From Mesorhizobium sp. (GTDB lineage: Bacteria > Pseudomonadota > Alphaproteobacteria > Rhizobiales > Rhizobiaceae), in the NCBI GenBank assembly GCA_049650385.1, contig JBASAA010000006.1:20979-84978 (forward strand): a stretch of DNA of 64,000 nucleotides. Direction: 5' to 3'. The notes beneath the pieces were generated by a model that made no database searches, had not been told where the DNA came from, and saw only the letters and a program-made list of their open reading frames with translations. A program made the translations under genes and the position numbers. Below are positions 5,361-26,084 of this stretch, one piece after another (within the stretch, counting starts at the first letter, position 1; every line of letters starts with the position of its first letter).

Positions 5361-5393
5361 AAAAAACCAAAGCGGGTTCGCTTCAGGCTTTGG
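5361..5393 (-). terminator. Candidate intrinsic terminator of the CDO-like cupin gene
   Basis: On the minus strand: CCAAAGC (complement of 5387-5393), a 13-nt loop, GCTTTGG (5367-5373), then TTTTTT (5361-5366). The stem straddles the stop codon at 5383-5385. Confidence 0.45.
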
Positions 5394-5964
5394 AAGCCCT
5401 TGTCTTGACGCCGATACCCATCACGCTGGCCGTTCCCGCTTCCATGTCGAAGGTCAGGCGTTCGGACAGGCTCTCCAGCGCCCTGCCGTAGAAATGAAGA
5501 TGCCGGATCAACGAGCCGCCGCGAATCTCGACCGAATGGATGTCGTCCGGCATGAGCGCCACGCCGTTGCCCGGCGCGATGTCGACTTCCCGGAGCAGAT
5601 TGAGCCGGGCGCTCCCTGCGCCGGTTCCGCCGTCGACACGTTCGTACAGCTTGTTGTGCTCGGTGCCTTCAACCGCAGCGATGCATGCCCAGGTGGTGTG
5701 ATTATGAGGGGGGATCAGTTTTCCCGGGCGCATGACGTTCAGGTAAAGGGTGTAGCCCGTCTTGTCGTCGGCGTGCACGAGATATCGCGCTTGACGCTCG
5801 TCCGCTTCCGGGTCGGGATAGACGGAATCCGCCCACGCTTCCCGTTGGCCTGCAAGCGACAGCAGTTCTGTGAGAATGGTGTCGAGAGAGGAACGGTTGA
5901 CACCGTCCCGGCCAATCGTCTCAGTGGCAAGCGCCATAAAGGCGTCGACCTTGTTCTGCGCCAT
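5383..5964 (-). CDS. Cupin, cysteine-dioxygenase-like (thiol dioxygenase fold) protein
   Basis: Contains ...PPHNHTTWACIAAVEGTEHNKLY... (an HxH cupin motif spaced like the CDO-type IHDH...G..E) and a distal ...DDIHSVE... His. The start is taken at MAQNKV (5964); the track ORF extends to 6018. Confidence 0.7.
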   Translation of the reverse strand: MAQNKVDAFMALATETIGRDGVNRSSLDTILTELLSLAGQREAWADSVYPDPEADERQARYLVHADDKTGYTLYLNVMRPGKLIPPHNHTTWACIAAVEGTEHNKLYERVDGGTGAGSARLNLLREVDIAPGNGVALMPDDIHSVEIRGGSLIRHLHFYGRALESLSERLTFDMEAGTASVMGIGVKTRASKA

Positions 5965-6025
5965 CGGTAAACTCCCTGATCTGCCTGAAGATGTGTATGT
6001 AGGATGGCAGAAAGGCATGATCGGG

Positions 6026-6046
6026 TCAATGAATACATGTCATTGA
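6026..6046. promoter_or_regulatory. Dyad TCAATGA-N7-TCATTGA in the cupin / MmgE-PrpD divergent region
   Basis: Perfect 7-bp inverted arms at 6026-6032 and 6040-6046. It contains AATGAA...ATGTCATT, the halves of the motif also seen at 12632, 18381 and 25255. Confidence 0.35.
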
Positions 6047-6117
6047 GATGTTGTTTTTGATAAAAGAAATGTTAGGTTTGGCGACCGGATCGCGACGACC
6101 TGGAGGGGATGTGCCGC

Positions 6118-7608
6118 ATGGGAGCGGACTCGACGGCGACACCACGAACAGACGGACATTCGGCCAATCGTGTCGGAAGCGTCACGGCGCAGCTTGCGCG
6201 GTATATTGTCGATGCGCGCCTGCAGGACTTTCCACCGGAAGTGATCCGCAAGGCGGCGCTTTGCCTTCTCGACAGCATCGGCTGTTCCATGGCCGGCAGC
6301 CATACCCGTCGGGGTGACATTTTATATTCGCTGCTGACTCCGGTGGCGGAAGGAGGCATGCAGATTTTCGGGCGCCAGTTTCGCACGACCCCTTATGAAG
6401 CGGTTTTCTACAACGCACTGACTGCAAATTTCCTGGAACTCGATGATAGCTATGACCGGCCGGGCAGCATCATGTTCGCGCACCCGGGCGCGAATGTCGT
6501 GCCGCCGGTGCTTGCGCTGGCGCAGATGCGTGGCGCTTCCGGCCAGGAGGTGCTGGAGGCAATCGTGGTGGGATACGAAACCTGCCTGCGCGTGGGTGCG
6601 GCGATACAGCCAAGCTACCGCCGTGCGACCGAAGAAGTATGGGGCTGCGCCACCTTCCAGACGTTTGGCTCGGTGGCCGCTGCCGCGAAACTGCTGAAGC
6701 TTGACCTGGAGCAGACCCTGAACGCGCTCGGTATTGCCGGTGCGACTGCCCCGGTTCCGTCCACGCTCAAGGTCTGGCGCGACGACCATCCGGATATGCA
6801 CAACGGCTATGGGTGGGCGGCGGAGGCGGGCCTGCGTGCCGCGCTGATTGCCGAGCGTGGCTATACCGCGCCGCACGACATCCTCGACGGAAACAACGGC
6901 TTCTGGAGAATGTACGGTTCCGACCAGTGCGACTTCGCCCTGTTTACCGAGGGCCTTGGAAAACGTTTCGCCATTCTCGACGTCGCCTTCAAGCCGTGGC
7001 CCGCCTGCCGTTGGACGCATCCCGTCATGGATGCGGGCAAGGCCCTTACGGAAAGACAGGGGCTACGGCTAAGGACGTTGGAAGACATTGAACGCGTCCG
7101 CAAGGTCACCGTCCGGATTTTTGCGCAGGCGACACGGTATCCCTATGCCAACTACAAGCCCGGGACGCTGCTGGAGGGACAGTTCAGCACGCCTTTCTGC
7201 GCCGCTGCGGCATTGCTCCGTGTCTGGCCCGAAGAGTCGCTGTTCCGATCGGGAGGAATGTGCGATCCGCGCTTGCCGGCGCTGATGGGGAAGATTGAAT
7301 TGCAGGTCGATCCGGGCGCGGAGGCGGCTTTTCCCGGCAACGGCGGCGATGCGCTCTCAGCAGGAATGACCGTGGAGACACGGGACGGTACGTACGACAT
7401 CTTCATACCGGCCCCGTTCGGAGACCGGCGCAATCCCATGGAACTGGACGATCTGATCGCCAAGTTTCATTCGAGCAACGCCAATCGCATCACCAAGACT
7501 GAAGTGTCTTCGATAGCCGATACCGTGATCGCTCTTTGCGACGACGTGCCGGCAGCCCCGCTCCTGGCGATGCTATCCCACGCGGCCACGGTTGAAGCGG
7601 CCTTTTGA
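6118..7608 (+). CDS. MmgE/PrpD-family protein (2-methylcitrate dehydratase superfamily; substrate unknown)
   Basis: About 496 aa, with the N-terminal ...LARYIVDARLQDFPPEVIRKAALCLLDSIGCSMAG... typical of MmgE/PrpD. The ATG at 6118 lies 11 nt after GGAGG (6102-6106). The track start at 6109 abuts the SD. Confidence 0.85.
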   Translation: MGADSTATPRTDGHSANRVGSVTAQLARYIVDARLQDFPPEVIRKAALCLLDSIGCSMAGSHTRRGDILYSLLTPVAEGGMQIFGRQFRTTPYEAVFYNALTANFLELDDSYDRPGSIMFAHPGANVVPPVLALAQMRGASGQEVLEAIVVGYETCLRVGAAIQPSYRRATEEVWGCATFQTFGSVAAAAKLLKLDLEQTLNALGIAGATAPVPSTLKVWRDDHPDMHNGYGWAAEAGLRAALIAERGYTAPHDILDGNNGFWRMYGSDQCDFALFTEGLGKRFAILDVAFKPWPACRWTHPVMDAGKALTERQGLRLRTLEDIERVRKVTVRIFAQATRYPYANYKPGTLLEGQFSTPFCAAAALLRVWPEESLFRSGGMCDPRLPALMGKIELQVDPGAEAAFPGNGGDALSAGMTVETRDGTYDIFIPAPFGDRRNPMELDDLIAKFHSSNANRITKTEVSSIADTVIALCDDVPAAPLLAMLSHAATVEAAF

Positions 7609-7639
7609 TAAATGCGCTTCCGGGGGAAGGCCTTCTTTG

Positions 7640-7668
7640 TTGACATGCTGCTTGGCCGAACGTAACAT
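7640..7668 (+). promoter_or_regulatory. Sigma70-like promoter upstream of the LLM monooxygenase operon
   Basis: TTGACA (7640-7645), a 17-nt spacer, then TAACAT (7663-7668), 40 nt upstream of the ATG at 7708. It lies in a locally AT-rich gap after the MmgE/PrpD stop. Confidence 0.4.
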
Positions 7669-7707
7669 CTTAGAAAATATATCTAACATTCTATAAGGTT
7701 GGGACTC

Positions 7708-8736
7708 ATGGATTTCGGTGCATTTATCCTCTTTCAGCGTCTCGACGAGAGTGTGGCGACGAAGGACGTCTACAGGCATTCGCTGGATCTCGTCTGTCGG
7801 GCCGAGGAGCTTGGATTTTCCACCGCCTGGTTTCCAGAGCACCACCTCATCCACTACGTTTCGTGCCCTTCGCCGCTGATGATGACCGTGGCCGCGGCGG
7901 CCCGGACCTCGAAGATACGGCTGGGCACGGCGATCGCGGTCGCCCCGTACTACCATCCGATACGCCTCGCCGGCGAAATCGCCCAGGCCGACACCCTGAC
8001 CGGCGGCCGGCTCGAGATCGGCATCGGTCGTGGGGCGGTCAACTACGAGTTTGCGCGCTTCGGCGTGGATGCCAAGCTGGCATCGGCAAGGTTTTTCGAG
8101 TCCGCGTCCGTCGTCAAGCGCTTCCTGAGCGAGGAGGAGGTTGAGCATCAGGGCGAGTTCTGGAATTTCCCCGCCTCGACTACGGTGCCTCGGCCCGCGC
8201 AGACGCCGTTCCCGCGCATGTGGGTGGCTGCCCGGTCGATCGACACGATCCGCTGGTCGATAGGCAACGGCTTCAACGTGATGACCAACGTCGGATGGGG
8301 CGAGCCGTTCACGGTCATCGAGCAGGTGGCGCAGCAGGTGAATGCGGCGATCCGCGAGATCAATCCGCCGGTGCGACCGAAGTTCGGGGTTTCCAGGGTG
8401 TGCTTCGTGGCCGAAACCGATGCCCTGGCGAGGGAGGCGATGCGCGCGGCCCAGGTCAGCAGCCGCATCTTCAGCCGCCTTTTCCGGGATCAGGTCGAGG
8501 TGCGGAACGGATTCCCGGTGCCGGAGCCCCTGGAGGGGGAGGCGTCAGCGGAACATCTCAGCGAGACCCTGGTCGTGGGCTCGCCGGCGACCTGCATCGA
8601 GAAGCTGAAGCGTTACAAAGAGATCGGTGTAGACCATTTCATGATGTTCGTATTCGGACCGGACCAGGCCTCGATGAAGCGATCGATGGAACTCTTCGGC
8701 ACCGAGGTCATGCCCTATTTCAGCGATACGAAGTAA
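7708..8736 (+). CDS. Luciferase-like (LLM class) flavin-dependent monooxygenase/oxidoreductase
   Basis: MDFGAFILFQ...AEELGFSTAWFPEHHL...GRLEIGIGRG... are LuxA-like TIM-barrel motifs. The ATG at 7708 has AAGG 9 nt upstream. The track start is the TTG at 7699. Confidence 0.85.
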   Translation: MDFGAFILFQRLDESVATKDVYRHSLDLVCRAEELGFSTAWFPEHHLIHYVSCPSPLMMTVAAAARTSKIRLGTAIAVAPYYHPIRLAGEIAQADTLTGGRLEIGIGRGAVNYEFARFGVDAKLASARFFESASVVKRFLSEEEVEHQGEFWNFPASTTVPRPAQTPFPRMWVAARSIDTIRWSIGNGFNVMTNVGWGEPFTVIEQVAQQVNAAIREINPPVRPKFGVSRVCFVAETDALAREAMRAAQVSSRIFSRLFRDQVEVRNGFPVPEPLEGEASAEHLSETLVVGSPATCIEKLKRYKEIGVDHFMMFVFGPDQASMKRSMELFGTEVMPYFSDTK

Positions 8737-8815
8737 TCCCGGCTACTGCGGGCTGCTGCCGGTGCAGGCGCTCCCGCATGGAACGTCGAGCGATTGTTCT
8801 GGACGAGGTTTGAAT

Positions 8816-9832
8816 ATGAAGCACAAGTCTGACGAGCCGTTTACCGCGCTTGTTCTGGAGGCGGAGGGTCGCACTCAAACGGCGCGATTCCGCAGCTTGA
8901 CCGCAGCCGACCTGCCGGACCACGATACGCTGGTCCAGGTCTCCTTTTCCACGATGAACTACAAGGACGGCCTGGCCGTCTCGGGCAAGGGTCGCATAGC
9001 GCGGCGTCTGCCTATGGTCGCCGGCATCGACCTGATGGGAACGATCGTCGAGACCCGCTCCGCCGACTGGAAGCCGGGCGACAAGGTGATCGTCAATGGG
9101 TGGGGGATGTCGGAAACCGAGTGGGGCGGCTATTCCCGCTATCAGCGCGTGAAATCCGACTGGCTCGTCCGGCTTCCCGATACCCTGACCGAAGTCGAAG
9201 CCATGGCGATCGGCACCGCCGGATACACGGCCGCCTTATGCGTCGACGCCCTGGAAGACTGGGGCGTCGTCAAGCCGGGGACCGGTGAGGTTCTGGTGAC
9301 GGGTGCTGCCGGAGGCGTCGGCTCGGTGACGATCAGCCTGTTGTCCAAGGCAGGTTACCAGGTGACGGCGGCCACGCGTCGTCCCGAGACACACGGCTAC
9401 CTGGCCGAACTCGGCGCGACATCGTTCGTGGACCAGCCGTCGCTCGCGGAAAAGGGCGGCCCGCTGCAAAAGGAACGGTGGAGCGGCGCGGTGGATTCCA
9501 TCGGTTCCGTCACGCTGGCCAACGTCCTGTCCCAGACCGTCTACGGCGGCGCGGTGGCGGCATGCGGCCTGGCTGGCGGCGCGGATCTGCCGGGGACTGT
9601 GCTGCCGCATATCCTGCGTGGCGTAACTCTTATCGGGATCGACTCGGTATTTGCGCCGTTGGCGAAGCGCGAGCGGGCGTGGGCGAGGCTGGCGGCCGAC
9701 CTCGACCGTAGCAAGCTTGCCCGCATCATGCGCGTGGAGCCATTCGCGAAAGTCCCCGAGCTTGCGAACGAAATCCTCGACGGCAAGATCCGCGGCCGCG
9801 TCGTGATAGACATGTCCGGCGAGGGCCTGTAG
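8816..9832 (+). CDS. YhdH/YhfP-family NADPH:quinone/enoyl (acrylyl-CoA-type) reductase, MDR superfamily
   Basis: Contains ...VSFSTMNYKDGLAVSGKGRIARRLPMVAGIDLMGTIVE... and the NADPH loop TGAAGGVGS, which I recognise as the YhdH/AcuI subfamily. The start is at MKHKSD (8816). Confidence 0.88.
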   Translation: MKHKSDEPFTALVLEAEGRTQTARFRSLTAADLPDHDTLVQVSFSTMNYKDGLAVSGKGRIARRLPMVAGIDLMGTIVETRSADWKPGDKVIVNGWGMSETEWGGYSRYQRVKSDWLVRLPDTLTEVEAMAIGTAGYTAALCVDALEDWGVVKPGTGEVLVTGAAGGVGSVTISLLSKAGYQVTAATRRPETHGYLAELGATSFVDQPSLAEKGGPLQKERWSGAVDSIGSVTLANVLSQTVYGGAVAACGLAGGADLPGTVLPHILRGVTLIGIDSVFAPLAKRERAWARLAADLDRSKLARIMRVEPFAKVPELANEILDGKIRGRVVIDMSGEGL

Positions 9833-9872
9833 CAGCCGGATAGCGAAGCCTGAAACGCAAGTGAGGTGCTCA

Positions 9873-10820
9873 GTGCAAGAGAACATGGACCCCCTCTTCG
9901 ACGTGAAGGCCTTCCGTTCCGCGCTGGGAACTTTTCTGACCGGCATCACGGTGGTCACCACCGTCGATGCTGAGGGCATCCCCAGGGGCTTTACGGCGAA
10001 TTCCTTCACTTCGGTATCGCTCGAACCGCCGCTCGTCCTGGTCTGCATAGGAAAGGGCGCGAGTACCTACGAGGCCTTCCAGTCGGCCGGCCATTTCTGC
10101 ATCAACATTCTATCCGAAGAGCAGAAGAATATCAGCAGCCGCTTCTCGTCCCGGACCGCCGAACGGTTCAGCGCCGTCAACTGGCTGCCCGGAGCGTGCG
10201 GCAGTCCTGTTCTGCAGGACGTCTCCGCCTGGTTCGAATGCAAGATGCACCAGCAGGTCGACGCCGGCGATCACCTCGTACTGATAGGTCGCGTCGTGGA
10301 CTTCGCCCAAAGCAGTGTCAATCCGCTCGGTTATTGCCGGGGTGCCTATGTGACGCCCAGTCTGATGCAATCGCTGCTTGATTCCGCCTTTACAAGCCAA
10401 CTGCGCGTCGGGGTCATTCTCGAAAGCAACGGCGCTCTTCTGCTCCACAAGAACGAGGCCGGCGGTCTCGGCCTGTTGACGGCGAGTTCGTTGGGCTCGC
10501 GCGACGATCCTAGCTCGCTGCTTGGCCGGGCAGAGCGACTCGGTTTGAAGTTCAGCCTGAGCTTCCTTTTCTCGGTTTTCGAGGACGAGGTCGGCGGGAA
10601 GAACCGGGTTTCGGTCTACTATCGCGGAATACTTGAGGAAACCGCCGGGCTGGATGGCTCGCTCGTGCTCGCGACCGAGGATCGGATTCCCTGGGAGCGG
10701 ATCGTCGACGACAACGAGGTGCGGATGCTGCGCCGTTTCATCCGCGAGGCGCAGGACAAGGTCTTTTCGGTTTATTCCGGCGGAAATCAGCTGACAACGC
10801 CGCTGGCCGTATCCGGGTGA
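9873..10820 (+). CDS. Flavin reductase-like FMN-binding domain fused to a C-terminal ~150-aa Nudix-fold-like domain with degenerate Nudix box
   Basis: The N-terminal half has ...FRSALGTFLTGITVVTTVDAEGIPRGFTANSFTSVSLEPPLVLVCI... (HpaC/NtaB-type flavin reductase). The C-terminal half has ...RVGVILESNGALLLHKNEAGGLGLLTASSLGSRDDPSSLLGRAERLGLKF... The start is ambiguous: GTG 9861, GTG 9873 (GAGG 6 nt upstream) or ATG 9885. Confidence 0.75.
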   Translation: MQENMDPLFDVKAFRSALGTFLTGITVVTTVDAEGIPRGFTANSFTSVSLEPPLVLVCIGKGASTYEAFQSAGHFCINILSEEQKNISSRFSSRTAERFSAVNWLPGACGSPVLQDVSAWFECKMHQQVDAGDHLVLIGRVVDFAQSSVNPLGYCRGAYVTPSLMQSLLDSAFTSQLRVGVILESNGALLLHKNEAGGLGLLTASSLGSRDDPSSLLGRAERLGLKFSLSFLFSVFEDEVGGKNRVSVYYRGILEETAGLDGSLVLATEDRIPWERIVDDNEVRMLRRFIREAQDKVFSVYSGGNQLTTPLAVSG

Positions 10821-10842
10821 CGCTGGGTCGCAAGCATAGCAG

Positions 10843-12483
10843 GTGTTCGACAACCTGGTCGAACAGGACACGGCTACGGTTCGGGAGGACCTACGGTTGG
10901 TAACTGCGGTTACGCTGAAGCAATGGCTGCACGACGGCGGGGAAATCGCCCTGCTGGATGTGCGTGAGGAAGGCGAGTTCGGTGAGGGACATCTTTTTTA
11001 CGGTGTTCCTCTTCCATTCAGCCGGCTTGAGTCCGGTCTCGAACGATTGGTGCCCCGGTCCTCGTGCCGGATCGTGATGTATGACGACGGCGCCAGCGGT
11101 GTGGCCGCCAAAGCGCAAGCGCTCGCGCGGCGCTATGGCTACGGCGATGTCCATGTCCTGGATGGCGGGACAAGGGCGTGGAAAGAGGCGGGCTTTTCCT
11201 TGTTTGCGGGCGTGAATGTTCCCTCCAAGACTTTCGGGGAACTGGTCGAGCACGCCGAAGCGGTTCCGCTTATCACTGCTGGGGAATTGCACGAGAAGCT
11301 TGCGGCAAAGGAAGATGTGGTGGTGATCGATGGCCGCCCGATCGACGAGTACCGCAAGATGAACATTCCCGGCAGCCTGTGCTGTCCGAATGGCGAACTC
11401 GTCTATCGGATCAGCGAAATCATACGTAGTCCCGAAACCACGGTCGTAATCAACTGCGCTGGGCGCACGCGCAGCATCATGGGAGCGGCGACCTTGCGCC
11501 GTTTCGGCTGCGCCAACCGCGTGGTGGCGCTCGAAAATGGAACGATGGGCTGGCGGCTTGCCGGCTTCGAACTGGAACATGGCAGCGATCGCCTCTACCC
11601 GTCGCCTCCGCATGGCGCGCGCCTGGAGGAAATCCGCCGCGAGGCCGCCGGTCTTGCCGAGTCTTTCCATGTATCAAGAGCCGAGGCGGAAACGGTTGCC
11701 CGATGGCTGGGTGAGGAAAATCGTACGACTTACTTGCTCGACATACGGACGCCCGAGGAATTTGGCGAAGGTTCCGCTCCCGGTGCAGTGTCCGCGCCGG
11801 GAGGGCAGCTTCTACAGGCGACCGACCAATGGCTGGGGGTCCGCAACGCGCGTGTCGTGCTGCTTGATGACGATGAGGTGCGGGCGCCCGTCATCGCGAG
11901 CTGGCTGTCGCAGCTCGGCTGGGAGACTTACGTGCTCGAGGGTGGTTTGGCGGCGGCGGCTTCGCTGTCTTCCGATCCCGGCCTGAACTCCATAGCCGCC
12001 ATGCTGGCTGGGCAGCCTCCCATCGGGCCGCAAGACCTGGTTGCGCTGGGCGACGACATCGTTCTCGTGGATGCGCGCCATTCGAGCGAGTATCGCCGCT
12101 GTCACCTGCAAGGCGCGGTTTGGGCGACACGGGCCCGCCTGGAGAAGGTGCTCGGCCGTATCGGTAATCGCCCGGCCCTGGTAATTGCCGACAACGAGAC
12201 GGTCGGCCAGGCGTTTGCGGCGGATATCGCGGAAGCCGGAGGCAAGGTTGTCGGCCTGCATGTCGGCAACCCCGACCTATGGCGCCGGTTCGGTCTGCCG
12301 CTTGCCAGCACTCCCGACATGCCGTCGGATGCCGAATGTATCGACTACCTGTTTTTCGTGCATGACCGCCATGCGGGAAATCTGGACGCCGCGCGCCAAT
12401 ACATCGCCTGGGAAAAGGGCCTCGTCGACAAGCTCGATAAGCAGGAACTTGCCGGATACCGCATGAAGTTGCCTCGCGCCTGA
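10843..12483 (+). CDS. Multi-rhodanese-domain sulfurtransferase (four rhodanese modules, one catalytic Cys loop) with ~70-aa C-terminal extension
   Basis: Four repeats of the LLDVR/VIDGR/LLDIR/LVDAR ... E(F/Y) pattern are present. Only module 2 has a Cys loop (VINCAGRTRS). Modules 1, 3 and 4 have Asp at that position (MYDDGASG, LLDDDEVR, VIADNETV). An alternative TTG start at 10897 has GGGAGG 8 nt upstream. Confidence 0.85.
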   Translation: MFDNLVEQDTATVREDLRLVTAVTLKQWLHDGGEIALLDVREEGEFGEGHLFYGVPLPFSRLESGLERLVPRSSCRIVMYDDGASGVAAKAQALARRYGYGDVHVLDGGTRAWKEAGFSLFAGVNVPSKTFGELVEHAEAVPLITAGELHEKLAAKEDVVVIDGRPIDEYRKMNIPGSLCCPNGELVYRISEIIRSPETTVVINCAGRTRSIMGAATLRRFGCANRVVALENGTMGWRLAGFELEHGSDRLYPSPPHGARLEEIRREAAGLAESFHVSRAEAETVARWLGEENRTTYLLDIRTPEEFGEGSAPGAVSAPGGQLLQATDQWLGVRNARVVLLDDDEVRAPVIASWLSQLGWETYVLEGGLAAAASLSSDPGLNSIAAMLAGQPPIGPQDLVALGDDIVLVDARHSSEYRRCHLQGAVWATRARLEKVLGRIGNRPALVIADNETVGQAFAADIAEAGGKVVGLHVGNPDLWRRFGLPLASTPDMPSDAECIDYLFFVHDRHAGNLDAARQYIAWEKGLVDKLDKQELAGYRMKLPRA

Positions 12484-12631
12484 GTTGGCAAGGCAGGGAG
12501 CGTGACCGGTCAAATCGTCCGCTCCCGGGCGGTGGACGTGCCGCACGTTCTGAAACGGATCAGTGATGCCGGAGCGTCGGGTTCTGCCGGAAAGTCCGTG
12601 GCCGTACGCCAATGCCGGTGCGGCCGCATAG

Positions 12632-12694
12632 ATAATGAAATGTCATTACCATTCCTTGACATTCTACGACTCACAATTATTGTGCTTGTAGAAT
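12632..12694. promoter_or_regulatory. Composite operator-like region upstream of the PaaK-like ligase operon
   Basis: Four elements are present. ATAATGAAATGTCATT lies at 12632-12647. The inverted half-sites AATGTCA (12639-12645) and TGACATT (12657-12663) flank an 11-bp spacer. There is a nested dyad ATTCTAC (12661-12667) ... GTAGAAT (12688-12694). That dyad encloses the perfect palindrome CACAAT-T-ATTGTG (12672-12684). Confidence 0.4.
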
Positions 12695-12744
12695 TTTAAT
12701 AGGGCGATCGATCAGGGATCGCTGATGGGGAGCAGGCGCCTGAC

Positions 12745-14148
12745 ATGAGCATTTCGGAACTACCCTTCTACGCAAACGCCCTTGACATTCCTGCGCTATG
12801 GGAGGAGTTCCCGCCGCCGCCGCTCTATTTCAACGGCGTCGCGCGGATGGACCGCAGCAGCCTGGCCGCCTTGCAGGCGCGCAGGTTCATGCAGCAGGTG
12901 GAACGCGCATGGCAGGTGCCCTTCTATCAGCGACATTGGGGCAGGGCGGGTCTGAAACCCGGCGATATCCGCGGCATCGAGGATATCTCGATCATTCCTC
13001 CGTTCTCGGTCGCGGATTTGCGCGAGAGCATCGAACTGATGCCGCCCTTCGGGGACTACATGGGCTATGATCCGAAGTCGGATCCGCCGATGCCGCTGGT
13101 CATGCAGACGAGCGGCGGCACCACGGGCATTCCGCGCCCCATGCTTTACTCGCCGCGCGATCGCGAAGTCGTCAACATCATGGGCGCGCGAAGGCTCTAT
13201 GCGCACGGCGTACGGCCGCACGACCTGGTGCAGGTCACCCATTCGCTCGGCCTTTCGAACGCCGGTCTGTCCACCCGTGAATCGCTTTGGAAATATACCG
13301 GCGCCGTGCCCGTGATGACGGGTGCCGGCTCGGCGACGCCCACGCGCCGGCAGATCGAGTTGATGAAGGCCTGGAAGGTTAAGGTTCTGATCGGTTTTCC
13401 GGCCTATCTGCGCCACATGGCGCTCGTCGCTCGTGACGAAATGGGCATCGATCCGCGCACGATGGACGTGCGCTTCCTCAGCACGCATCTCGGCACCGAG
13501 GATCGCGGCGTTCTCGAGGACCTCTGGGGCGCGAAGGTCTACGACACCTATGGCGCCAACGAAGCCGGCATGATCGCGGCGGACTGCGAAGAGCAGAACG
13601 GAATGCACATCTACGAAGATGCGCACTTCGTGGAAGTGGTCGACCTGGAGAGCGGCAAGGCCGTTCCGGAAGGTGAGAACGGCACGGTGTTCGTGACCTG
13701 CCTGTTCAAGCATCTGGCGCCCATGATCCGCTTCAACATCAATGACATTTCAGCAGTCGTCCCCGGCGACTGCCCTTGCGGTTGTACTCACCGGCGGCTG
13801 GCCGGCATCTTCGGGCGCAGCGACAACATGGTGAAGTTGCGGGGGGTCAACGTGTATCCGGATGCCATCGGCTCCGTCATCGGCGATGTTATCGAGACTA
13901 CGGGCGAATATGTCTGCGTCGTGGATATGGTAGACGGGCGCGACGAGATGACCGTTCTGGTGGAATCGGTTCAGGAAGAAGAACCGGACGACCAGCCCGG
14001 ACAGGCTGCGCTCGAACTCCGCTTCAAGGAGGCGCTCAACGTAAAGGTGACGGCAAAGGTCGTGGCGCGCGGTGCGCTCGATCAGATGACGGGACTGTCG
14101 AAGACCTCCAAGATCAAGCGTCTGATAGATAATCGTAAAAAGGGCTGA
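12745..14148 (+). CDS. Phenylacetate-CoA-ligase-like (PaaK / coenzyme F390 synthetase family) adenylate-forming enzyme
   Basis: P-loop-like MQTSGGTTGIPRP, ...YDTYGANEAG..., and a C-terminal ...LSKTSKIKRLID with the catalytic-Lys region. The protein is 467 aa, and GGGGAG lies about 12 nt upstream of the ATG. Confidence 0.85.
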   Translation: MSISELPFYANALDIPALWEEFPPPPLYFNGVARMDRSSLAALQARRFMQQVERAWQVPFYQRHWGRAGLKPGDIRGIEDISIIPPFSVADLRESIELMPPFGDYMGYDPKSDPPMPLVMQTSGGTTGIPRPMLYSPRDREVVNIMGARRLYAHGVRPHDLVQVTHSLGLSNAGLSTRESLWKYTGAVPVMTGAGSATPTRRQIELMKAWKVKVLIGFPAYLRHMALVARDEMGIDPRTMDVRFLSTHLGTEDRGVLEDLWGAKVYDTYGANEAGMIAADCEEQNGMHIYEDAHFVEVVDLESGKAVPEGENGTVFVTCLFKHLAPMIRFNINDISAVVPGDCPCGCTHRRLAGIFGRSDNMVKLRGVNVYPDAIGSVIGDVIETTGEYVCVVDMVDGRDEMTVLVESVQEEEPDDQPGQAALELRFKEALNVKVTAKVVARGALDQMTGLSKTSKIKRLIDNRKKG

Positions 14149-14153
14149 GCGAC

Positions 14154-18183: not shown

Positions 18184-18206
18184 CTGACATGTCAGATACA
18201 TTGTAT
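18184..18206. promoter_or_regulatory. Two abutting palindromes upstream of the class-V PLP enzyme gene
   Basis: The perfect 12-bp palindrome CTGACATGTCAG (18184-18195) is followed directly by ATACA-T-TGTAT (18196-18206). The pair lies 33-55 nt upstream of the minus-strand start at 18151. Confidence 0.35.
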
Positions 18207-18380
18207 GCCACGATTCGTCCATAGGAAAATTTACCGCCTTTTGGGCGAGGCGGGTGACCCTGTCGAAACAGCGATTTTTGAAAATATATATCAATAACAG
18301 TACGTTACAAAGAAAGTCGCTCTGGCGGGGCTTAAAAATTGCGATGCACCCTTGCTTGCCAACGGCAAAACTTTGTGGTT

Positions 18381-18396
18381 ACAATAAAATGTCATG
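18381..18396. promoter_or_regulatory. AT-rich motif copy upstream of the monocupin-ABC operon
   Basis: ACAATAAAATGTCATG matches 13 of 16 positions of ATAATGAAATGTCATT at 12632-12647. It lies about 80 nt upstream of the ATG at 18473. Confidence 0.3.
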
Positions 18397-18472: not shown

Positions 18473-18940
18473 ATGGGTGAGCAAGCGACTTGGGGTGAAA
18501 AACTCGACGCTGCGATTGTCGAGGCGGCGAAGGAAAACCAACGCGCGAAGAAGGTGATCCGCTCCGAGGAACTTGTCTGGGAAGAAGACAAGATGGCGCG
18601 CTCGGCGCTGCTCATCAGTGCTCATACCGGCTTCAACCTGAAATCCATCCATTCCTTCCTCGCCGAAATGCCTGCCGGCGCAAGTACGGGCAAGCATCGT
18701 CACACCAGCGAGGCCATGATGTATGCCCTGTCGGGTGAGGCCTACACGATCATCGATGGTGAACGTATCGACTGGAAGGCCGGTGATGCCATCGCGATGC
18801 CGGCGATGTGCTGGCACCAGCATTTCAATGCAAGCACGGAAAAGCCCTTCTGCTATCTCGCGGCATCCAATTATCCGATGACGGTAAATCTCGGGATCGC
18901 GCTGATCGAGACCGCAGACATTCGCTCCGATCTCAAATAG
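18473..18940 (+). CDS. Monocupin protein resembling one barrel of gentisate-1,2-dioxygenase-type cupins
   Basis: ...GASTGKHRHTSEAMMYALSGEAYTIIDGERIDWKAGDAIAMPAMCWHQHFN... fits the cupin pattern G-x5-HxH...G...GD...P...H.H.N. GGGAGG lies about 10 nt upstream of the ATG. Confidence 0.75.
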   Translation: MGEQATWGEKLDAAIVEAAKENQRAKKVIRSEELVWEEDKMARSALLISAHTGFNLKSIHSFLAEMPAGASTGKHRHTSEAMMYALSGEAYTIIDGERIDWKAGDAIAMPAMCWHQHFNASTEKPFCYLAASNYPMTVNLGIALIETADIRSDLK

Positions 18941-18956: not shown

Positions 18957-20033
18957 GTGCTTGATATCAAGAACCTTCGCCTTACCTACGCAGGCGCCGA
19001 CACCCCGGCGATCGACAATCTTTCGCTTTCGGTGCCCGATGGAACCATCGTGACGCTTCTCGGCGAAAGTGGCTGCGGAAAGACGTCCACGCTCCGCTCG
19101 GTGGCGGGGCTCGAGACGCCGGATTCGGGTGAGATCGTTATCGGCGGCCAGGCCGTTTTTTCGGGCGCTGGCGCTGTGGTGCCACCCTATCGCCGGCAGA
19201 TAGGGATGGTCTTTCAGAGTTACGCGATCTGGCCGCACAAGACGGTGTTCGAGAATGTGGCCTACGGGTTGCAGTCGGCGAAGGAACCCCGCACCGTCGT
19301 CGCCGAGCGGACGACCTGGGCGCTCTCGACTGTAGGTCTGGGCGACTTTGCCCAACGCTCGGCAGCGCTTCTGTCCGGCGGGCAGCAGCAGCGCGTAGCG
19401 CTGGCCCGGGCGCTCGCCACACGTCCAAGGCTGCTTCTGCTTGACGAGCCCTTGTCCAATCTTGACGCCAAACTGCGTGAGCAGATGCGGTTCGAGCTGC
19501 GCCGCATTCTGAAAGACCTTGGGATCACCGCGATCTATGTGACGCACGATCAGGAGGATGCTTTCGTCCTTTCGGACATGACTGCTTTGATGAATCGTGG
19601 CCGGATCGAGCAACTGGGTGCGCCTAACGACATCTACCAGCGACCGGCAACCCGGTTTGTTGCCGAGTTCCTGGGTCAGTCGTGCCGGACGGAGGGCGTG
19701 GTGCGCGGTCGTGAGGGGGATCGGCAGATGGTGGACACGCCGCTTGGTTCGCTCGCCTGCCTGTCGGCCCGAACCTTCACCGCGGGTGACAAAGTGCTTG
19801 TCTACGTGCGCCCGGAAGAGCTTCAGCCCGTCGAGGAGACATCCGAGGGGCAGGCTGTCTCGCTCGAACGTGTCAGCCTGCTCGGTGGAGTTGTCGACTG
19901 GGAGGGGGTGGCAGGAGGCGTGAGGCTGCGCGGCACCGTTCCCACCGGAACCCCGATCGCCAACCATCTCGTCTCGAACCGGCCCGAGAAGCTGACGGTG
20001 TCGATCCGCAATGCGCGTTGCGTCCCGGCATGA
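18957..20033 (+). CDS. ABC transporter ATP-binding protein (PotA/FbpC/UgpC type with C-terminal TOBE-like domain)
   Basis: Walker A GESGCGKTS, signature [15 protein letters not shown] and Walker B LLLLDEP. The protein is 358 aa with a GTG start. Confidence 0.92.
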   Translation: MLDIKNLRLTYAGADTPAIDNLSLSVPDGTIVTLLGESGCGKTSTLRSVAGLETPDSGEIVIGGQAVFSGAGAVVPPYRRQIGMVFQSYAIWPHKTVFENVAYGLQSAKEPRTVVAERTTWALSTVGLGDFAQRSAALLSGGQQQRVALARALATRPRLLLLDEPLSNLDAKLREQMRFELRRILKDLGITAIYVTHDQEDAFVLSDMTALMNRGRIEQLGAPNDIYQRPATRFVAEFLGQSCRTEGVVRGREGDRQMVDTPLGSLACLSARTFTAGDKVLVYVRPEELQPVEETSEGQAVSLERVSLLGGVVDWEGVAGGVRLRGTVPTGTPIANHLVSNRPEKLTVSIRNARCVPA

Positions 20034-20158
20034 GACGGCAGGGAGAGGTCGCTCGCGTCGCAAGGAACAGCGCCAAAGGGGAAAATCACAGCGTCTGAAA
20101 ACACGGTCGAGGACCCGTTCCATACGCTGTTGCAACGACTGGAAGAGGAGGAAATGCA

Positions 20159-21238
20159 ATGGGATACGCTACCAAGACAATTTTGAAATTCGGGACCGCG
20201 CTGCTGTTCCTGCAGGCCTTTGCCGCAGGTGCAACCGCGCAGTCGGTTCAGAAAGCTCTCGATGAGCTTGCGGCCAAGCCCGCAGGAGAACGCCAGGCCT
20301 TCCTCGAGGAGAAGGCCAAGCAGGACGGAAAGATCGTCGTATACGCTGCAGACGATCCGAATGTCATGCGCGCGTGGGAGGAGGCGTTCCACACGAAGTA
20401 TCCCGAGATCAAGGTCGAGTATGTCCGAATGAGCACCAAGGACATGCTTCAGCGAGTGGAGGCGGAAACCGCGGCCGGCCGGCCGGTCGCTTCGCTGTTG
20501 GGGGGCATCACCGCGAGCGAGATCAACTATCTCATGGAGCGCGGCATGCTCGCCTCCTATCATTCGCCCGAGGCGGCGGGTTTCCCCCCAAGCTATGCCG
20601 ATCCTGACGGCAAGTGGACCGTGCACTGGCTGATGCCGGAGGTCACCGCGTTCAATACGGACACGATCTCCAAGGAAGACGTGCCGGTCGACCAGGAAAA
20701 ACTCTGGGGTTCGGATTTCAAGGCTCCGATCGGGCGGCTTCAGTCAGGCGGCCGCTGGCTTGCTGGCTATGCATCCCTCAAGGGCGAGGAAGCCGCCGCG
20801 AAACTGGCCGATGCCGTGGCGGCGAAGAAGCCGCAGCTATTTCAAAGCAATTCCGACCTGACGAACGCCCTGACTGCGGGCCAGATCGCGGTCGCCGCCG
20901 ACATGCACGCTGGCAATGTTGCCATTGCGGCCGACCGTGGGGCCCCAATTGACTACGTCTTGCCGGAGCCCTTGCCGATCCTGCCCGCCTACACGGTGTT
21001 CCTCGCGGATGCTCCCAATCCCTACGCTGCTGCGCTCAATTACGACTGGCGCCTCGCTAAGGACGGAGGTCAGTCCTTCTACAAGGAATTCCACCAGTTC
21101 GGGCCACGCGAAGACACCGAGTACGACTTTGCCGATGTCGCCACCTCCGGCCGGACCTTGGTTCCTTTGACCGACAAGGTGCTGGCGACTATCGGCCAGT
21201 ACGACACCATGTTCCGGGAAAAGGTGTTGGGCAAGTAA
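20159..21238 (+). CDS. ABC transporter periplasmic substrate-binding protein (family 1, Fe3+/thiamine/aminoethylphosphonate-like)
   Basis: Sec signal ...LLFLQAFAAGATAQS. The protein is 359 aa, GGAGGA lies 7 nt upstream, and the gene sits between the ATPase and the fused permease. Confidence 0.85.
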   Translation: MGYATKTILKFGTALLFLQAFAAGATAQSVQKALDELAAKPAGERQAFLEEKAKQDGKIVVYAADDPNVMRAWEEAFHTKYPEIKVEYVRMSTKDMLQRVEAETAAGRPVASLLGGITASEINYLMERGMLASYHSPEAAGFPPSYADPDGKWTVHWLMPEVTAFNTDTISKEDVPVDQEKLWGSDFKAPIGRLQSGGRWLAGYASLKGEEAAAKLADAVAAKKPQLFQSNSDLTNALTAGQIAVAADMHAGNVAIAADRGAPIDYVLPEPLPILPAYTVFLADAPNPYAAALNYDWRLAKDGGQSFYKEFHQFGPREDTEYDFADVATSGRTLVPLTDKVLATIGQYDTMFREKVLGK

Positions 21239-21265
21239 GCTTCCAGAAGGCCAGGGAAAATTACG

Positions 21266-22996: not shown

Positions 22997-23160
22997 GCCG
23001 GCACCCCTTATCCGCCAGGCCGGCCGCCGGCTACTATACATTGCGCTGAGCACCACGAGGTGGTAATTAACATGTTTACTTAACATGGCTGGCATGTCGC
23101 CATCGGACCAAGATTAACGAGTTGAACAGTGTAATCTGGTCTCCGTTGTGAGGAAATAAA

Positions 23161-23913
23161 ATGGGCGATGTGAAAGCAGTTCCGGTAGAAGGTAAGCTAA
23201 GCGACCAGGCGTTCGAAATGATTAAGCGCCTGATCATTCGCTGTGACCTTCGCCCGGGCAATGAGGTGACTGAGGCGCAGCTCTCGGTTCTGACCGGGCT
23301 CGGGAAAGCACCCATCCGCGCGGCACTCGCGAGGCTTTCCCAGCGAGGGCTGGTGTTCTCGGTGCAGCGGCGTGGCTATCGGATCGCGCCGATCACCGTG
23401 CGGGACATCACCAATATCTATCAGTTGCGCCTGATCATCGAGCCGCAGATTGCGCGGCTTGCTGCTCAAAAGGTTATTCCGCCTGATGTTATCGAACGGC
23501 TGCGCGACCTGGCCGCCGCCGGCTACGAGAAAGAAGACGGGGACAGTACCTCGGATTTTCTGGACAAGAACCGGCGCTTTCACCTGAGTATCGCGCACCT
23601 CACCGGCAACGACCGCCTGATCAAGCTCATGGAACAACTCTTTGAGGAAATGGACAGGTTGTTTTACGTTGGCCTGTCCATCCGCAACCGGTCGGGTGAG
23701 ATGCGGCGCGAGCACCAGGCCCTGATCGATGCGATCATCAACGGAGACGCCGAGCGGGCAGAGAAGGTGGCTGCCGCCGAGATTACCACATCGCAGAAGA
23801 TGGTCATCGAAGCCGTTCTTCAGGAATCCGAGTTCTTCGATACAAATATTCTCGAACTGGATCGAGTTTCCCTGATCACAGCAAATTCCTATAAATCCGC
23901 CCGGCTTTCATGA
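23161..23913 (+). CDS. GntR-family transcriptional regulator (FadR/FCD C-terminal domain type)
   Basis: Winged-HTH ...VTEAQLSVLTGLGKAPIRAALARLSQRGLV... followed by an all-helical C-domain. GAGGAAA lies 5 nt upstream of the ATG. Confidence 0.88.
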   Translation: MGDVKAVPVEGKLSDQAFEMIKRLIIRCDLRPGNEVTEAQLSVLTGLGKAPIRAALARLSQRGLVFSVQRRGYRIAPITVRDITNIYQLRLIIEPQIARLAAQKVIPPDVIERLRDLAAAGYEKEDGDSTSDFLDKNRRFHLSIAHLTGNDRLIKLMEQLFEEMDRLFYVGLSIRNRSGEMRREHQALIDAIINGDAERAEKVAAAEITTSQKMVIEAVLQESEFFDTNILELDRVSLITANSYKSARLS

Positions 23914-25102
23914 CCATAAGCATTCGCGCGGGGTCCTGGAACAGCGCGATCTCCTTGAGTGGGTTCCCTTCGACGACGATCAGGTCGGCGTATTTTCCGG
24001 GTTCGACCGTCCCTGTCAGATCGGCCATCCGCATGAGTTCCGCGTTGGTGCGGGTCGCCGACAGAAGGGATTCCATCGGTGTCATGACCTCGGCTTTCAA
24101 CTCGAGCTCCATCGGTTGATACTTCACCATGGTTCCCAGGAGATCTGTGCCGGTCCCTATCTTGAGGCCGGCGCGATAGGCGATCTCAAGGCCCCGCAAC
24201 CCGGAATTACGCGCCGCTTCCACCTTCTGGAGCTGGAACGGAGGAATGTTGAACTCCTTGCCATGGCGGGAAAGCGCTTCATACACCGCCAGCGTCGGCA
24301 CTAGCCACGCATCGGCGTCACGCACGGCAATGGCCGCCTCCTCGGTGATCAGGTTTCCGTGCTCGATCGAGCGCACGCCCGCGCGGGCGGCATTCATCAC
24401 TGCGGCGCCCGAATAGGCATGCGCCATGACATACCGGTTGGCAGCGGTCGCTTCCTCCACGGCGACCCGGATTTCCTCGAGCGTGAACTGGGCGACATCC
24501 AGTTCGTCGCCCGGCGACATCGCTCCGCCGGAACACATCAGCTTGATCTGGTCGGCGTGTCGACGCAGGTTCTCGCGCACGGCCTTGCGCATCTCGTGGG
24601 GACCATCCGCGACGGCCCCGACCAGCCCCACATCCGTTGCGGCCACACAGGTGCACAACTCCGCCGGCCGGCGTTTGTCGCCATGCCCGCCGGTCTGGTA
24701 GAGGTGATTTCCGCTTACCTTCATCCGCGGGCCTTTGATGTGGCCGTCTTCGACCGCCTGGCGGAATCCGAAATCGGCGCCGCCCGCGTCGCGCACCGTG
24801 GTGAAGCCCATCTGCAGCATCTGCTCCAGCTTCAGCATCGCCTGCACCGCGATGTAGCTGGGCGGAAGATTACGGTGCTGTTCCGCCGGGTTGGCCTGAA
24901 CCGCGCAGGCATGGACATGCGCGTCGATGAGCCCCGGCATGAGCGTCTTTCCGCCCAGGTCGATCACGTCTCCCGACCCAGCGGCGGAGGTATCGAGAAC
25001 GTCGCGAATCCTGCCGTTTTCGATGACGATCGAAGCTCCCTGCTTGGGCTCCGCGCCGGTGCAATCGATCAGGAAGGCATTGGCCAAAGTGACAACCGAC
25101 AT
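23876..25102 (-). CDS. Amidohydrolase-family metal-dependent hydrolase (imidazolonepropionase-related group)
   Basis: ...GKTLMPGLIDAHVHA..., ...VMAHAYS..., ...SIEHG... and ...GTGTDL... are amidohydrolase metal ligands. The start is at MSVVTL (25102). The 3' end overlaps the GntR gene by 38 nt, convergently. Confidence 0.85.
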   Translation of the reverse strand: MSVVTLANAFLIDCTGAEPKQGASIVIENGRIRDVLDTSAAGSGDVIDLGGKTLMPGLIDAHVHACAVQANPAEQHRNLPPSYIAVQAMLKLEQMLQMGFTTVRDAGGADFGFRQAVEDGHIKGPRMKVSGNHLYQTGGHGDKRRPAELCTCVAATDVGLVGAVADGPHEMRKAVRENLRRHADQIKLMCSGGAMSPGDELDVAQFTLEEIRVAVEEATAANRYVMAHAYSGAAVMNAARAGVRSIEHGNLITEEAAIAVRDADAWLVPTLAVYEALSRHGKEFNIPPFQLQKVEAARNSGLRGLEIAYRAGLKIGTGTDLLGTMVKYQPMELELKAEVMTPMESLLSATRTNAELMRMADLTGTVEPGKYADLIVVEGNPLKEIALFQDPARMLMVMKAGRIYRNLL

Positions 25103-25254
25103 CGAAATTCCTCCTGATTCTTCCACCCGACGAACTTCCGTCGATCCGAGGTGCGTCCCTCAGCGCCTATGGCGCAAGGCCGGCCGACTATAGGGGGTTG
25201 AAAGGACCTCGTCCGCTTTCGTAGTGGGAAAATTTAACATTTTACGATCGTGAG

Positions 25255-25271
25255 ATTGACATTTTCATTAT
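25255..25271. promoter_or_regulatory. AT-rich motif copy in the amidohydrolase / VOC divergent region
   Basis: The reverse complement reads ATAATGAAAATGTCAAT. Compared with 12632-12647 it has one extra A and one mismatch. A related TTAACATTTT sits 23 nt upstream (25234-25243) of the TTGACATTTT at 25256-25265. Confidence 0.3.
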
Positions 25272-25316
25272 GGAAGGGAGACTCATGCTGTCAAGTAAAA
25301 AAGGGACAAGCTCCAA

Positions 25317-26084
25317 ATGATCACAGCGATCGACCATGTCGTCATTCTGGCCCCGAAGCTTGAAGCCGCCACCAGATATTATCAATCCCTCGGGTTCGAC
25401 GTCCGCGCGGGCGGCCGTCATTCGACTGGAACCGAGAACGCGCTCATCGGTCTTGCCGACGGGACCTATATCGAGCTTCTGGCCTTCGCGATCCCCGACC
25501 CGAGCCATCGGTGGGCGCCGAAGCTCGAATTCGGCGGGGGATTCCTCGACGTCTGCCTGGTATCCGACGATATCGGCGGTGACGTGGCACGTTACCTCGA
25601 TGGTGGCATCGAGATGGCGCCGATCCGTGCAATGGGCCGCCAGCGCCCCGATGGCAAGGAGCTTTCCTGGCGGTTGACCATCCCCAAGGCGCCCTGGGCT
25701 GGACAGATGCCGTTTCTGATCGAAGATGTAAGCCCCAACGAGTGGCGCGTTCCGCCTGCGGGAAAGCATTCGAACGGGGCCTCAGGCATAGCTGCGCTAC
25801 GGTGGATCGTCGCCGATCACGCGGCGTTGTCGGAACTGCTTTCACGCACCCTCGGGAAGGGTGCCGAGCCGACCGTCAACGACACCTATAACGCTGCGGG
25901 GTCGAGGATCGAACTGGGCGCGACCCGGATCGAGATACTGTCGCCCTCCGGAGACGGCCCGGCAGCCGTTTGGCTCGCGGTCCAGAACGGTGGCCCCCAT
26001 AGCATGGCTTTCCGGACCAGCGACGGGCGCGAAATCGAGCACGGACCAGCGGCGGCGAGAAGCTGGACCGACTGGCCGCAATAG
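25317..26084 (+). CDS. VOC / glyoxalase-like domain protein
   Basis: MITAIDHVVILAPKLEAATRYYQSLGFDV..GGRH..GTENALIGLADGTYIELLAF is typical of glyoxalase-like (VOC) domains. The protein is 255 aa. Confidence 0.75.
   Translation: MITAIDHVVILAPKLEAATRYYQSLGFDVRAGGRHSTGTENALIGLADGTYIELLAFAIPDPSHRWAPKLEFGGGFLDVCLVSDDIGGDVARYLDGGIEMAPIRAMGRQRPDGKELSWRLTIPKAPWAGQMPFLIEDVSPNEWRVPPAGKHSNGASGIAALRWIVADHAALSELLSRTLGKGAEPTVNDTYNAAGSRIELGATRIEILSPSGDGPAAVWLAVQNGGPHSMAFRTSDGREIEHGPAAARSWTDWPQ

Follow-up and report, generated by a model that had tools for sequence, protein, structure and literature searches.

The contig JBASAA010000006.1 of Mesorhizobium sp. (GenBank assembly GCA_049650385.1) contains a block of approximately 20 kb in which 19 genes for enzymes, a transporter and a regulator follow each other closely, and this raises the question of whether these genes form a single metabolic system and which compound it would serve. 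We analysed a stretch of 64,000 nt (positions 20,979 to 84,978 of the forward strand), which is called the window in the following, using gene calls from an open reading frame (ORF) listing and Pfam and NCBIfam profile scans of the window proteins. All genes named in a preliminary description of this DNA were found at the positions and with the families given there. The same description had proposed a single inducible catabolic system with its own importer, and this proposal is supported by two independent lines of evidence, the co-inheritance of the genes and a shared operator. We consider it reasonably probable that the block is one catabolic regulon, repressed by a GntR/FCD protein and dedicated to an imported, probably sulfur-containing, amide-linked carboxylic acid.

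In the order of the window, the block encodes a mercaptosuccinate-dioxygenase-type protein (Msdo, minus strand); an MmgE/PrpD-family protein; an operon for a luciferase-like flavin monooxygenase (LLM), an AcuI-type reductase, a flavin reductase and a rhodanese; an operon for a PaaK-like acyl-CoA ligase, a short-chain dehydrogenase/reductase (SDR) protein and an Amidohydrolase_2 protein (Amido2); a class-V pyridoxal phosphate enzyme (PLP-V) followed by a glutathione S-transferase (GST) on the minus strand; an importer operon for a monocupin, an ATPase, a periplasmic binding protein and a permease; the GntR regulator; a second amidohydrolase (Amido1, minus strand); and a VOC protein. These are nine transcription units with seven promoter regions, in comparison to six or seven units in the earlier count. 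GntR, Amido1 and VOC had been taken as one unit, but they represent three, because Amido1 is located on the minus strand, convergent with GntR (its 3' end overlaps gntR by 38 bp) and divergent from VOC. It is also correct that no housekeeping genes are found between the units, yet this does not discriminate between explanations, because accessory transporters and hydrolases make up the entire 64 kb window.

The first line of evidence for a single system comes from other genomes. In Aquamicrobium soli KCTC 52165, the block is fully colinear with 88-98% amino-acid identity, and this colinearity extends from approximately position 5190 of the window to the end of the available locus at 24157 (91.7% DNA identity). 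Upstream of the synteny start, A. soli has an amidase where the window has IclR and PALP genes. The left edge of the block is thus sharp and lies just beyond the terminator of Msdo, within a non-coding stretch of 387 bp (4996-5382) that separates the IclR gene from Msdo. Together with the last operator-like site at 25257, this agrees with the limits that had been assigned to the block before. Flanking repeats or signatures of mobile elements were not detected at the block boundaries.

A far more distant example is provided by a metagenome-assembled genome (MAG) of an uncultured gammaproteobacterium (contig CAYGJZ010000002.1), in which counterparts of 16 of the 19 genes are present in one cluster of approximately 24 kb, with 36-78% amino-acid identity. 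The gene order is rearranged relative to the window and reads rhodanese, GST, ligase, SDR, Amido2, AcuI (minus strand), cupin, ATPase, binding protein, permease, flavin reductase, VOC (minus), LLM, Amido1, GntR (minus) and a 733-aa fusion of a thiol dioxygenase with a rhodanese. MmgE/PrpD, PLP-V and the window-type GST are missing from this cluster, and its own GST is only 39% identical over 72 aa; a GST gene is thus present in both full clusters, but of differing types. The linkage was recovered by a genome scan anchored on the ligase, which used strict single-protein patterns and returned three loci, among them those of A. soli and the gammaproteobacterial MAG, and by a metagenome scan with an LLM alignment, which returned 12 mostly short loci; the gammaproteobacterial locus was extended through its LLM orthologue. 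A plasmid search with the whole block returned nothing but a 74% match to the AcuI-type gene. Partial linkages were observed for cupin, ABC transporter and flavin reductase (locus L012), for flavin reductase, VOC and LLM (L023), and for LLM, Amido1, GntR, ABC transporter and flavin reductase on a contig of the Joint Genome Institute (JGI). The orthologues, for which the preliminary description had asked whether they are scattered in other genomes, are thus found together. The ligase-SDR-Amido2 trio is also widespread in many genomes beside other transporters, and the system therefore appears to be modular.

The second line of evidence is a common operator motif. Recurrent ACAT-centred palindromes are present in the intergenic regions of the window, and the gammaproteobacterial cluster contains four perfect copies of the palindrome TAACATGTTA (0.01 expected) plus near copies, all of them in promoter regions and frequently paired at a distance of 22 bp. 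A position weight matrix built from nine of these gammaproteobacterial sites only, and applied to the 64 kb window, returned nine hits of at least 12 bits, in comparison to 1.59 ± 1.25 hits in 500 local-composition shuffles, none of which reached nine. All nine hits are located within the block and none in the remaining 43 kb. Strong and weaker hits together cover all seven promoter regions, and the sites overlap or abut promoter-like elements. The related AT-rich motifs, initially noticed in at least four promoter regions, are therefore real, exceed chance and occur in all seven. They are retained in A. soli, and two such sites precede the cupin in L012. Two further matches lie inside coding sequences, at 6315-6324 in the MmgE/PrpD gene (14.1 bits; also retained in A. 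soli) and at 13743-13752 in the ligase gene (10.8 bits), and may reflect chance or internal sites.

The GntR/FCD regulator consists of a winged-helix domain (PF00392) and an FCD domain (PF07729). It is 51% identical to its gammaproteobacterial counterpart, and the recognition helix is nearly identical. The best operator site of the window precedes gntR, which is consistent with a predicted autoregulation. Either this protein or the IclR protein next to the block had been considered as regulator. GntR is favoured by its conservation and by the shared operator, whereas IclR is excluded: it has no operator-like site, and it lies outside the block, because synteny with A. soli begins at approximately 5190 and IclR is absent beside the block in that genome.

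The preliminary description had listed Msdo as a cysteine-dioxygenase (CDO)-like cupin known at family level only; a cupin it is, although it has no Pfam match, but the family-level label does not hold, because the protein matches the crystallised mercaptosuccinate dioxygenase (PDB 8VNI) with an E-value of 8.5e-64 and approximately 65% identity over 184 of 192 residues. In the alignment, Q64, R66, N82, K88, H93, H95, H149, H163, Y165 and R175 are all identical to 8VNI. Mercaptosuccinate is bound by Gln64, Arg66, Asn82, Lys88, His163, Tyr165 and Arg175, of which Gln64, Arg66, Asn82 and Arg175 are the carboxylate binders (preprint 10.64898/2026.05.19.726356). By overall similarity, the 3-His iron site and the substrate residues, the protein is predicted to catalyse a mercaptosuccinate-dioxygenase-type reaction, in which mercaptosuccinate and O2 would give sulfinosuccinate.

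A full HMMER search of 1.84 billion representative sequences identified 858 members of the Msdo family, and approximately 14 of the best 150 are 600-776 aa long. Among the multi-domain members that were scanned, six carry the dioxygenase either before or after one to four rhodanese domains, three are fused to non-rhodanese partners and one has no detectable partner domain. Msdo is thus functionally tied to the rhodanese of the block, because fusions of thiol dioxygenase and rhodanese exist in the family and in the gammaproteobacterial cluster. A comparable arrangement is known from persulfide dioxygenase-rhodanese fusions, in which a sulfur-oxidising non-haem iron dioxygenase is joined to rhodanese; in contrast to the CDO/Msdo cupin of the block and its predicted thiol-acid substrate, persulfide dioxygenase has a metallo-beta-lactamase fold and acts on a persulfide. 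The non-rhodanese partners are a class I/II aminotransferase, an M28 peptidase and an alpha/beta hydrolase (P0296, P0294 and P0277), which suggests that hydrolases or PLP lyases free the thiol substrate of Msdo from a conjugate. PLP-V itself reaches 136 bits in comparison to the SufS/CsdA family cutoff of 475, and its motif RGGCACAGP, which we take to line up with the RTGHHCAxP loop of SufS, keeps the catalytic Cys position.

The remaining enzymes were characterised by profile and structure matches, and NCBI annotates their orthologues with generic names only. The LLM belongs to a LuxA/TgnB-like branch with a length of 342-345 aa; it has orthologues at 59-64% identity, only a generic name is available for it and a 98%-identical copy, and JGI applies the name trigonelline monooxygenase to relatives at 47-54% identity. 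Soil metagenomes contain a second uncharacterised cluster around a 53%-identical LLM (L019-L022 and L032), with the order MmgE/PrpD, ABC transporter with fused permease, LLM, SBP_5, GntR/FCD, M20 peptidase, a three-subunit xanthine-dehydrogenase-like enzyme, Opp permeases and a HutI-like amidohydrolase; TAACATGTTA-type sites were not found in these loci. The flavin reductase carries an extra C-terminal domain of approximately 150 aa, and single-domain versions are present in the gammaproteobacterial MAG (L015, 8560-9108) and in L012. The AcuI-type reductase exceeds the cutoff of TIGR02823 (401.9 bits versus 297.25) and stays below that of the AcuI equivalog NF051456 (423.1 versus 440). Amido1 matches PDB 3MKV (E 1.9e-103) and 3FEQ (E 2.9e-95), which are N-acyl-Pro/Xaa-Pro hydrolases (PMC11511702).

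The MmgE/PrpD protein does not reach the equivalog cutoffs of PrpD (41.9 versus 950, 34.3 versus 575 and 24.6 versus 458 bits), and its nearest solved relatives are IDS-epimerase and cis-aconitate decarboxylase rather than PrpD. A role as mercaptosuccinate racemase is weakened by the observation that Msdo accepts both enantiomers (preprint 10.64898/2026.05.19.726356). Likewise, the ligase is not PaaK proper, as it remains below both PaaK equivalog cutoffs (207.9 versus 700 and 179.9 versus 646 bits). The SDR had been called atypical, and this is borne out: at the positions of the classical Ser/Tyr/Lys triad (YxxxK), placed by comparison with E. coli FabG, it has Ala/Ser/Leu, as does its gammaproteobacterial orthologue. 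The Amido2 family comprises more than 1200 matches, the best 120 of which are all at least 66% identical and are distributed over Alpha-, Beta- and Gammaproteobacteria; it nearly always adjoins an SDR, an acyl-CoA ligase and a LIV-type ABC transporter, often together with TetR (L004, L006, L008, L009 and L011). A characterised member of this family was not found, and its best PDB match is the uncharacterised BB4693. The monocupin belongs to a rare family and is the first gene of the importer operon in every case; its structure model (pLDDT 66) matches only generic cupins. The transporter is considered an importer because a periplasmic binding protein is present. A DMSP (dimethylsulfoniopropionate) lyase role is not supported for either cupin: neither matches the Pfam family DMSP_lyase, and the monocupin shows only weak similarity to DddQ (E 0.004).

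From these data, we infer the repression by GntR, the individual enzymatic steps and the nature of the substrate as follows. The repressor would occupy palindromes, often paired at 21-22 bp, over or next to the -10/-35 elements of the seven promoter regions, including its own, and would be released when its FCD domain holds the inducer. The substrate would enter through the FbpA/PhnS2-class ABC importer, with the co-transcribed monocupin possibly acting early. The flavin reductase may then supply reduced flavin to the LLM for an oxidative C-heteroatom or ring cleavage, as known from TgnAB, RutAF and YxeK, and Amido1, as a putative prolidase/N-acyl-proline-type enzyme, would hydrolyse the amide formed in this step. 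The acid fragment would be activated by the PaaK-like ligase and processed by Amido2, the triad-less SDR and VOC, until the AcuI-type reductase would act on an acrylyl-CoA-like enoyl-CoA. The thiol-acid fragment, putatively mercaptosuccinate in this organism, would be oxidised by Msdo to a sulfinate that loses sulfite, while the rhodanese would handle the sulfur. MmgE/PrpD, PLP-V and this type of GST would be additions of this lineage that the operator controls as well. Candidate substrates are N-acylated thia-imino acids and conjugates of the S-succinyl or S-carboxyalkyl type, which should be taken as leads and not as findings. It is possible, although we state this only tentatively, that the enzymes of the block degrade a natural organosulfur compound in several steps, along a pathway not described before, in which the LLM and the prolidase-type hydrolase free a thiol acid that is desulfurised by Msdo and rhodanese.

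Several observations weigh against the proposed regulon for a sulfur-containing substrate. There are only two independent full-length examples, namely the Aquamicrobium/Mesorhizobium-complex lineage and one gammaproteobacterial lineage in three assemblies, and the genes may be linked in part because the whole cluster was transferred horizontally long ago. The weight-matrix test is not fully blind, because the gammaproteobacterial sites were picked after the motif had been seen in the window; the statistics on perfect copies in the gammaproteobacterial cluster are independent of this choice. The GntR/FCD protein is likely the repressor of the regulon, with its binding to TAACATGTTA-type sites predicted in silico. 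For the monocupin, the VOC protein, Amido2 and the SDR without a triad, the roles given above are guesses. Furthermore, the gammaproteobacterial fusion lacks Q64, R66 and N82, the residues for the distal carboxylate, in the alignment, and therefore its thiol is probably not mercaptosuccinate. Finally, sulfur may not be intrinsic to the core chemistry, because the smallest related cluster (LLM-Amido1-GntR-ABC-flavin reductase) contains no sulfur enzyme within 9.5 kb, and LLM relatives at approximately 53% identity are found in N-heterocycle-type contexts with a xanthine-dehydrogenase-like enzyme.

This last point leads to the alternative that survives best, although we judge it unlikely: the genes would form the same regulon, but for a sulfur-free N-heterocycle or a peptide-like substrate, which would be degraded by ring opening through the flavin monooxygenase, amide hydrolysis and formation of a C3/C4 acid, with thiol dioxygenase, rhodanese and GST in auxiliary or detoxifying roles. 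Such a route would resemble trigonelline degradation by TgnAB in Acinetobacter baylyi and pyrimidine degradation by RutA/RutF in E. coli, in both of which a regulated catabolic cluster encodes an LLM, a separate flavin reductase and an amide hydrolase for the subsequent step. Besides the sulfur-free minimal cluster, it is favoured by the trigonelline monooxygenase label of the LLM relatives, by the xanthine-dehydrogenase-like, M20 and HutI-like enzymes in related LLM clusters and by the similarity of Amido1 to N-acyl-Pro hydrolases; the AcuI step would also suit the 3-hydroxypropionate end product of a Rut-like route, and such a C3 product would account for the presence of an acrylyl-CoA reductase. 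However, both full clusters retain thiol dioxygenase, rhodanese and GST, all of them with the operator, the Msdo of the window has the complete set of mercaptosuccinate-binding residues, and the operator also covers a cysteine-desulfurase-like enzyme that is an addition of Aquamicrobium. The known systems also differ in their composition. The tgn pathway comprises the LLM TgnB with TgnA, a dehydrogenase, a hydrolase and succinate-semialdehyde dehydrogenase (TgnE), but an aldehyde dehydrogenase is absent from the block, and the TgnB label is found only on LLM relatives with at most 54% identity, a comparison that is based on labels. Sulfur enzymes set the block apart from both the Tgn and the Rut system, and RutB/C/D-type proteins are missing from it.

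An even less probable explanation is that the block represents the known degradation system for mercaptosuccinate, or a related xenobiotic thiol or thioether, together with unrelated neighbours. The similarity of Msdo to the characterised enzyme of Variovorax paradoxus B4 (approximately 65%) argues in this direction, as does its association with rhodanese, PLP sulfur enzyme and ABC importer genes, since the published msdo loci of strain B4 and of Advenella mimigardefordensis DPN7 also comprise genes for rhodanese, PLP C-S lyase and ABC transporter (PMC5373536). These loci, however, are short and LysR-regulated, have a cystathionine beta-lyase where the block has a class-V enzyme, and contain no LLM, flavin reductase, prolidase-type hydrolase, CoA-ligase trio, AcuI, cupin, VOC or MmgE/PrpD. 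In the window, the genes missing from msdo loci share their operator with Msdo, and they are co-inherited with the thiol dioxygenase in the gammaproteobacterial MAG. Moreover, the breakdown of mercaptosuccinate, which is regarded as a xenobiotic in the published work (PMC5373536), requires Msdo alone, because sulfinosuccinate decays spontaneously (PMC5373536; preprint 10.64898/2026.05.19.726356).

It is very improbable that the block serves the biosynthesis of a small molecule with sulfur. Ligases, flavin monooxygenases, PLP enzymes and GSTs do occur in biosynthetic clusters, but the transporter is an importer with a periplasmic binding protein, degradation is the function of Msdo, of the prolidase-type hydrolase and of the acrylyl-CoA reductase, and Pfam scans of the block identified no non-ribosomal peptide synthetase or polyketide synthase, exporter or tailoring genes. 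A chance juxtaposition of independent catabolic operons, which the accessory catabolic nature of the entire window and the stand-alone trio with other transporters might suggest, is strongly disfavoured by the co-location of 16 of 19 genes in another class in a different order, and by an operator that all promoter regions share and that is not found in the other 43 kb.

The yxe and Cmo operons of Bacillus subtilis, for S-(2-succino)cysteine and S-alkylcysteine, respectively, also combine an ABC importer, a flavin-dependent C-S-cleaving monooxygenase, a flavin reductase and an amidohydrolase; in addition, the yxe operon encodes YxeQ, a member of the PrpD family without assigned function, and its substrate carries a succinyl-sulfur moiety. 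In contrast to the 345-aa LuxA/TgnB-like LLM of the block, YxeK and CmoO/J belong to an NtaA/DszA branch of approximately 440 aa. The acetyltransferase YxeL has no equivalent in Pfam scans of the block, and both B. subtilis routes recover cysteine without a thiol dioxygenase. With the AcuI/YhdH reductases of DMSP, acrylate and 3-hydroxypropionate metabolism, the block shares family membership, but it has no evident DMSP lyase and no Dmd genes. The thiophene-2-carboxylate pathway, which is known from Aquamicrobium, was rejected because the known route needs a molybdenum hydroxylase and none is present in the block, and the description of the homarine hom operon does not fit the families of the block. 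Thus, single components or the general logic of the block recur in the msdo loci, in the Tgn, Rut and yxe/Cmo systems and in the AcuI routes, but the block as a whole fails the defining features of each. It had initially been stated that the enzyme combination matches no known pathway. No description of the combination was found in literature and family searches, which is weak evidence in view of the limited literature search, while for one unit, Msdo, a characterised counterpart exists.

Table. Features of the block in window coordinates, with the amino-acid identity of the gammaproteobacterial (gamma MAG) counterparts.
Feature	Position	Strand	Basis or remark	Identity, gamma MAG
Terminator-like hairpin with T-run	5367-5386	-	directly past the Msdo stop; near the synteny break with A. 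soli at ~5190	
Msdo-type thiol dioxygenase, 192 aa	5383-5961	-	PDB 8VNI match, E 8.5e-64	43-44% (N-terminus of 733-aa fusion)
Three operator-like sites, Msdo/MmgE divergent promoter region	6033-6078	.	weight matrix; cores start at 6033, 6044 and 6065, last two 21 bp apart	
MmgE/PrpD-family protein	6109-7608	+	Pfam/NCBIfam, PDB relatives	
Promoter-like TTGACA-17-TAACAT and two operator sites	7640-7693	+	sites 7663-7672 and 7684-7693, 21 bp apart; overlap and follow the -10	
LLM, 342 aa from likely start	7708-8736	+	Pfam, 208.8 bits	64%
YhdH/AcuI-family acrylyl-CoA reductase	8816-9832	+	likely ATG at 8816; ORF opens at 8762	48-51%
Two-domain NAD(P)H:flavin reductase	9861-10820	+	Pfam; PDB 3RH7 full-length match, E 1e-69	42%
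Multi-domain rhodanese	10843-12483	+	single canonical active-site loop C205-AGRTRS	43%; 36.5% (remainder of 733-aa fusion)
Operator-like sites and promoter-like element	12636-12698	+	sites 12636 and 12689, element 12656-12683; upstream of ligase operon	
PaaK-like acyl-CoA ligase	12745-14148	+	Pfam/NCBIfam	63%
SDR-fold protein without Ser-Tyr-Lys triad	14154-14948	+	Pfam, sequence inspection	61%
Amidohydrolase_2 protein (Amido2)	14976-15833	+	Pfam; homologue searches	78%
GST, 206 aa	15960-16580	-	Pfam/NCBIfam	
PLP-V, cysteine-desulfurase-like	16700-18151	-	Pfam/NCBIfam	
Operator-like palindrome TGACATGTCA	18185-18194	.	34 bp upstream of PLP-V start	
Promoter-like TTGCCA-18-TACAAT, then operator site TAAAATGTCA (18385)	18356-18394	+	upstream of importer operon; weight matrix	
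Monocupin, 3-His/1-Glu type	18473-18940	+	Pfam scan, homologue searches	76%
ABC importer ATPase	18957-20033	+	Pfam/NCBIfam	54%
Periplasmic binding protein, FbpA/PhnS2 class	20159-21238	+	Pfam/NCBIfam, homology	58%
Fused double permease, 576 aa	21266-22996	+	Pfam/NCBIfam	57-59%
Best operator site of the window, TAACATGTTT, 19 bits	23068-23077	.	upstream of gntR	
GntR/FCD transcription regulator, predicted repressor	23161-23913	+	PF00392 and PF07729	51%
Amido1, prolidase/N-acyl-proline amidohydrolase-type, M38 family, 416 aa	23876-25126	-	PDB 3MKV and 3FEQ matches	65%
Two operator sites, Amido1/VOC divergent promoter region	25235-25270	.	25235 and 25257, 22 bp apart	
Glyoxalase_3 (VOC) protein	25317-26084	+	Pfam scan	50%

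Beyond the block, the window contains a separate unit at 26702-37873, with a DAO oxidoreductase, SBP_5, OppBC permeases, a fused OppDF ATPase, an amidohydrolase, a CN-hydrolase and an M20 peptidase, which looks like a peptide- or hydantoin-type utilisation unit; the weight-matrix scan found no operator-like sites in it. An Opp-type transporter adjoins both full clusters and was considered as a shared member, but the two are not orthologous (approximately 35% identity). Further downstream, an MttB-family methyltransferase (45760-47298, minus strand, 684 bits) is located near a sarcosine-oxidase alpha subunit (48915-52022, minus strand), an arrangement that looks like a quaternary-amine demethylation region.

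Msdo has so far been studied only as a xenobiotic degrader, whereas here it is embedded in a conserved and co-regulated 19-gene system with its own importer. The block predicts a new operator for an FCD-type regulator and gives a functional context to families without assigned function, namely Amido2 with its more than 1200 close homologues, the triad-less SDR, Glyoxalase_3 and the rare monocupin. Identifying what the binding protein or the FCD domain binds would lead to the pathway. If the pathway for a natural organosulfur compound proves true, an enzyme known only from growth on a synthetic chemical would gain a physiological context, and a new GntR regulon with a TAACATGTTA operator would be defined.

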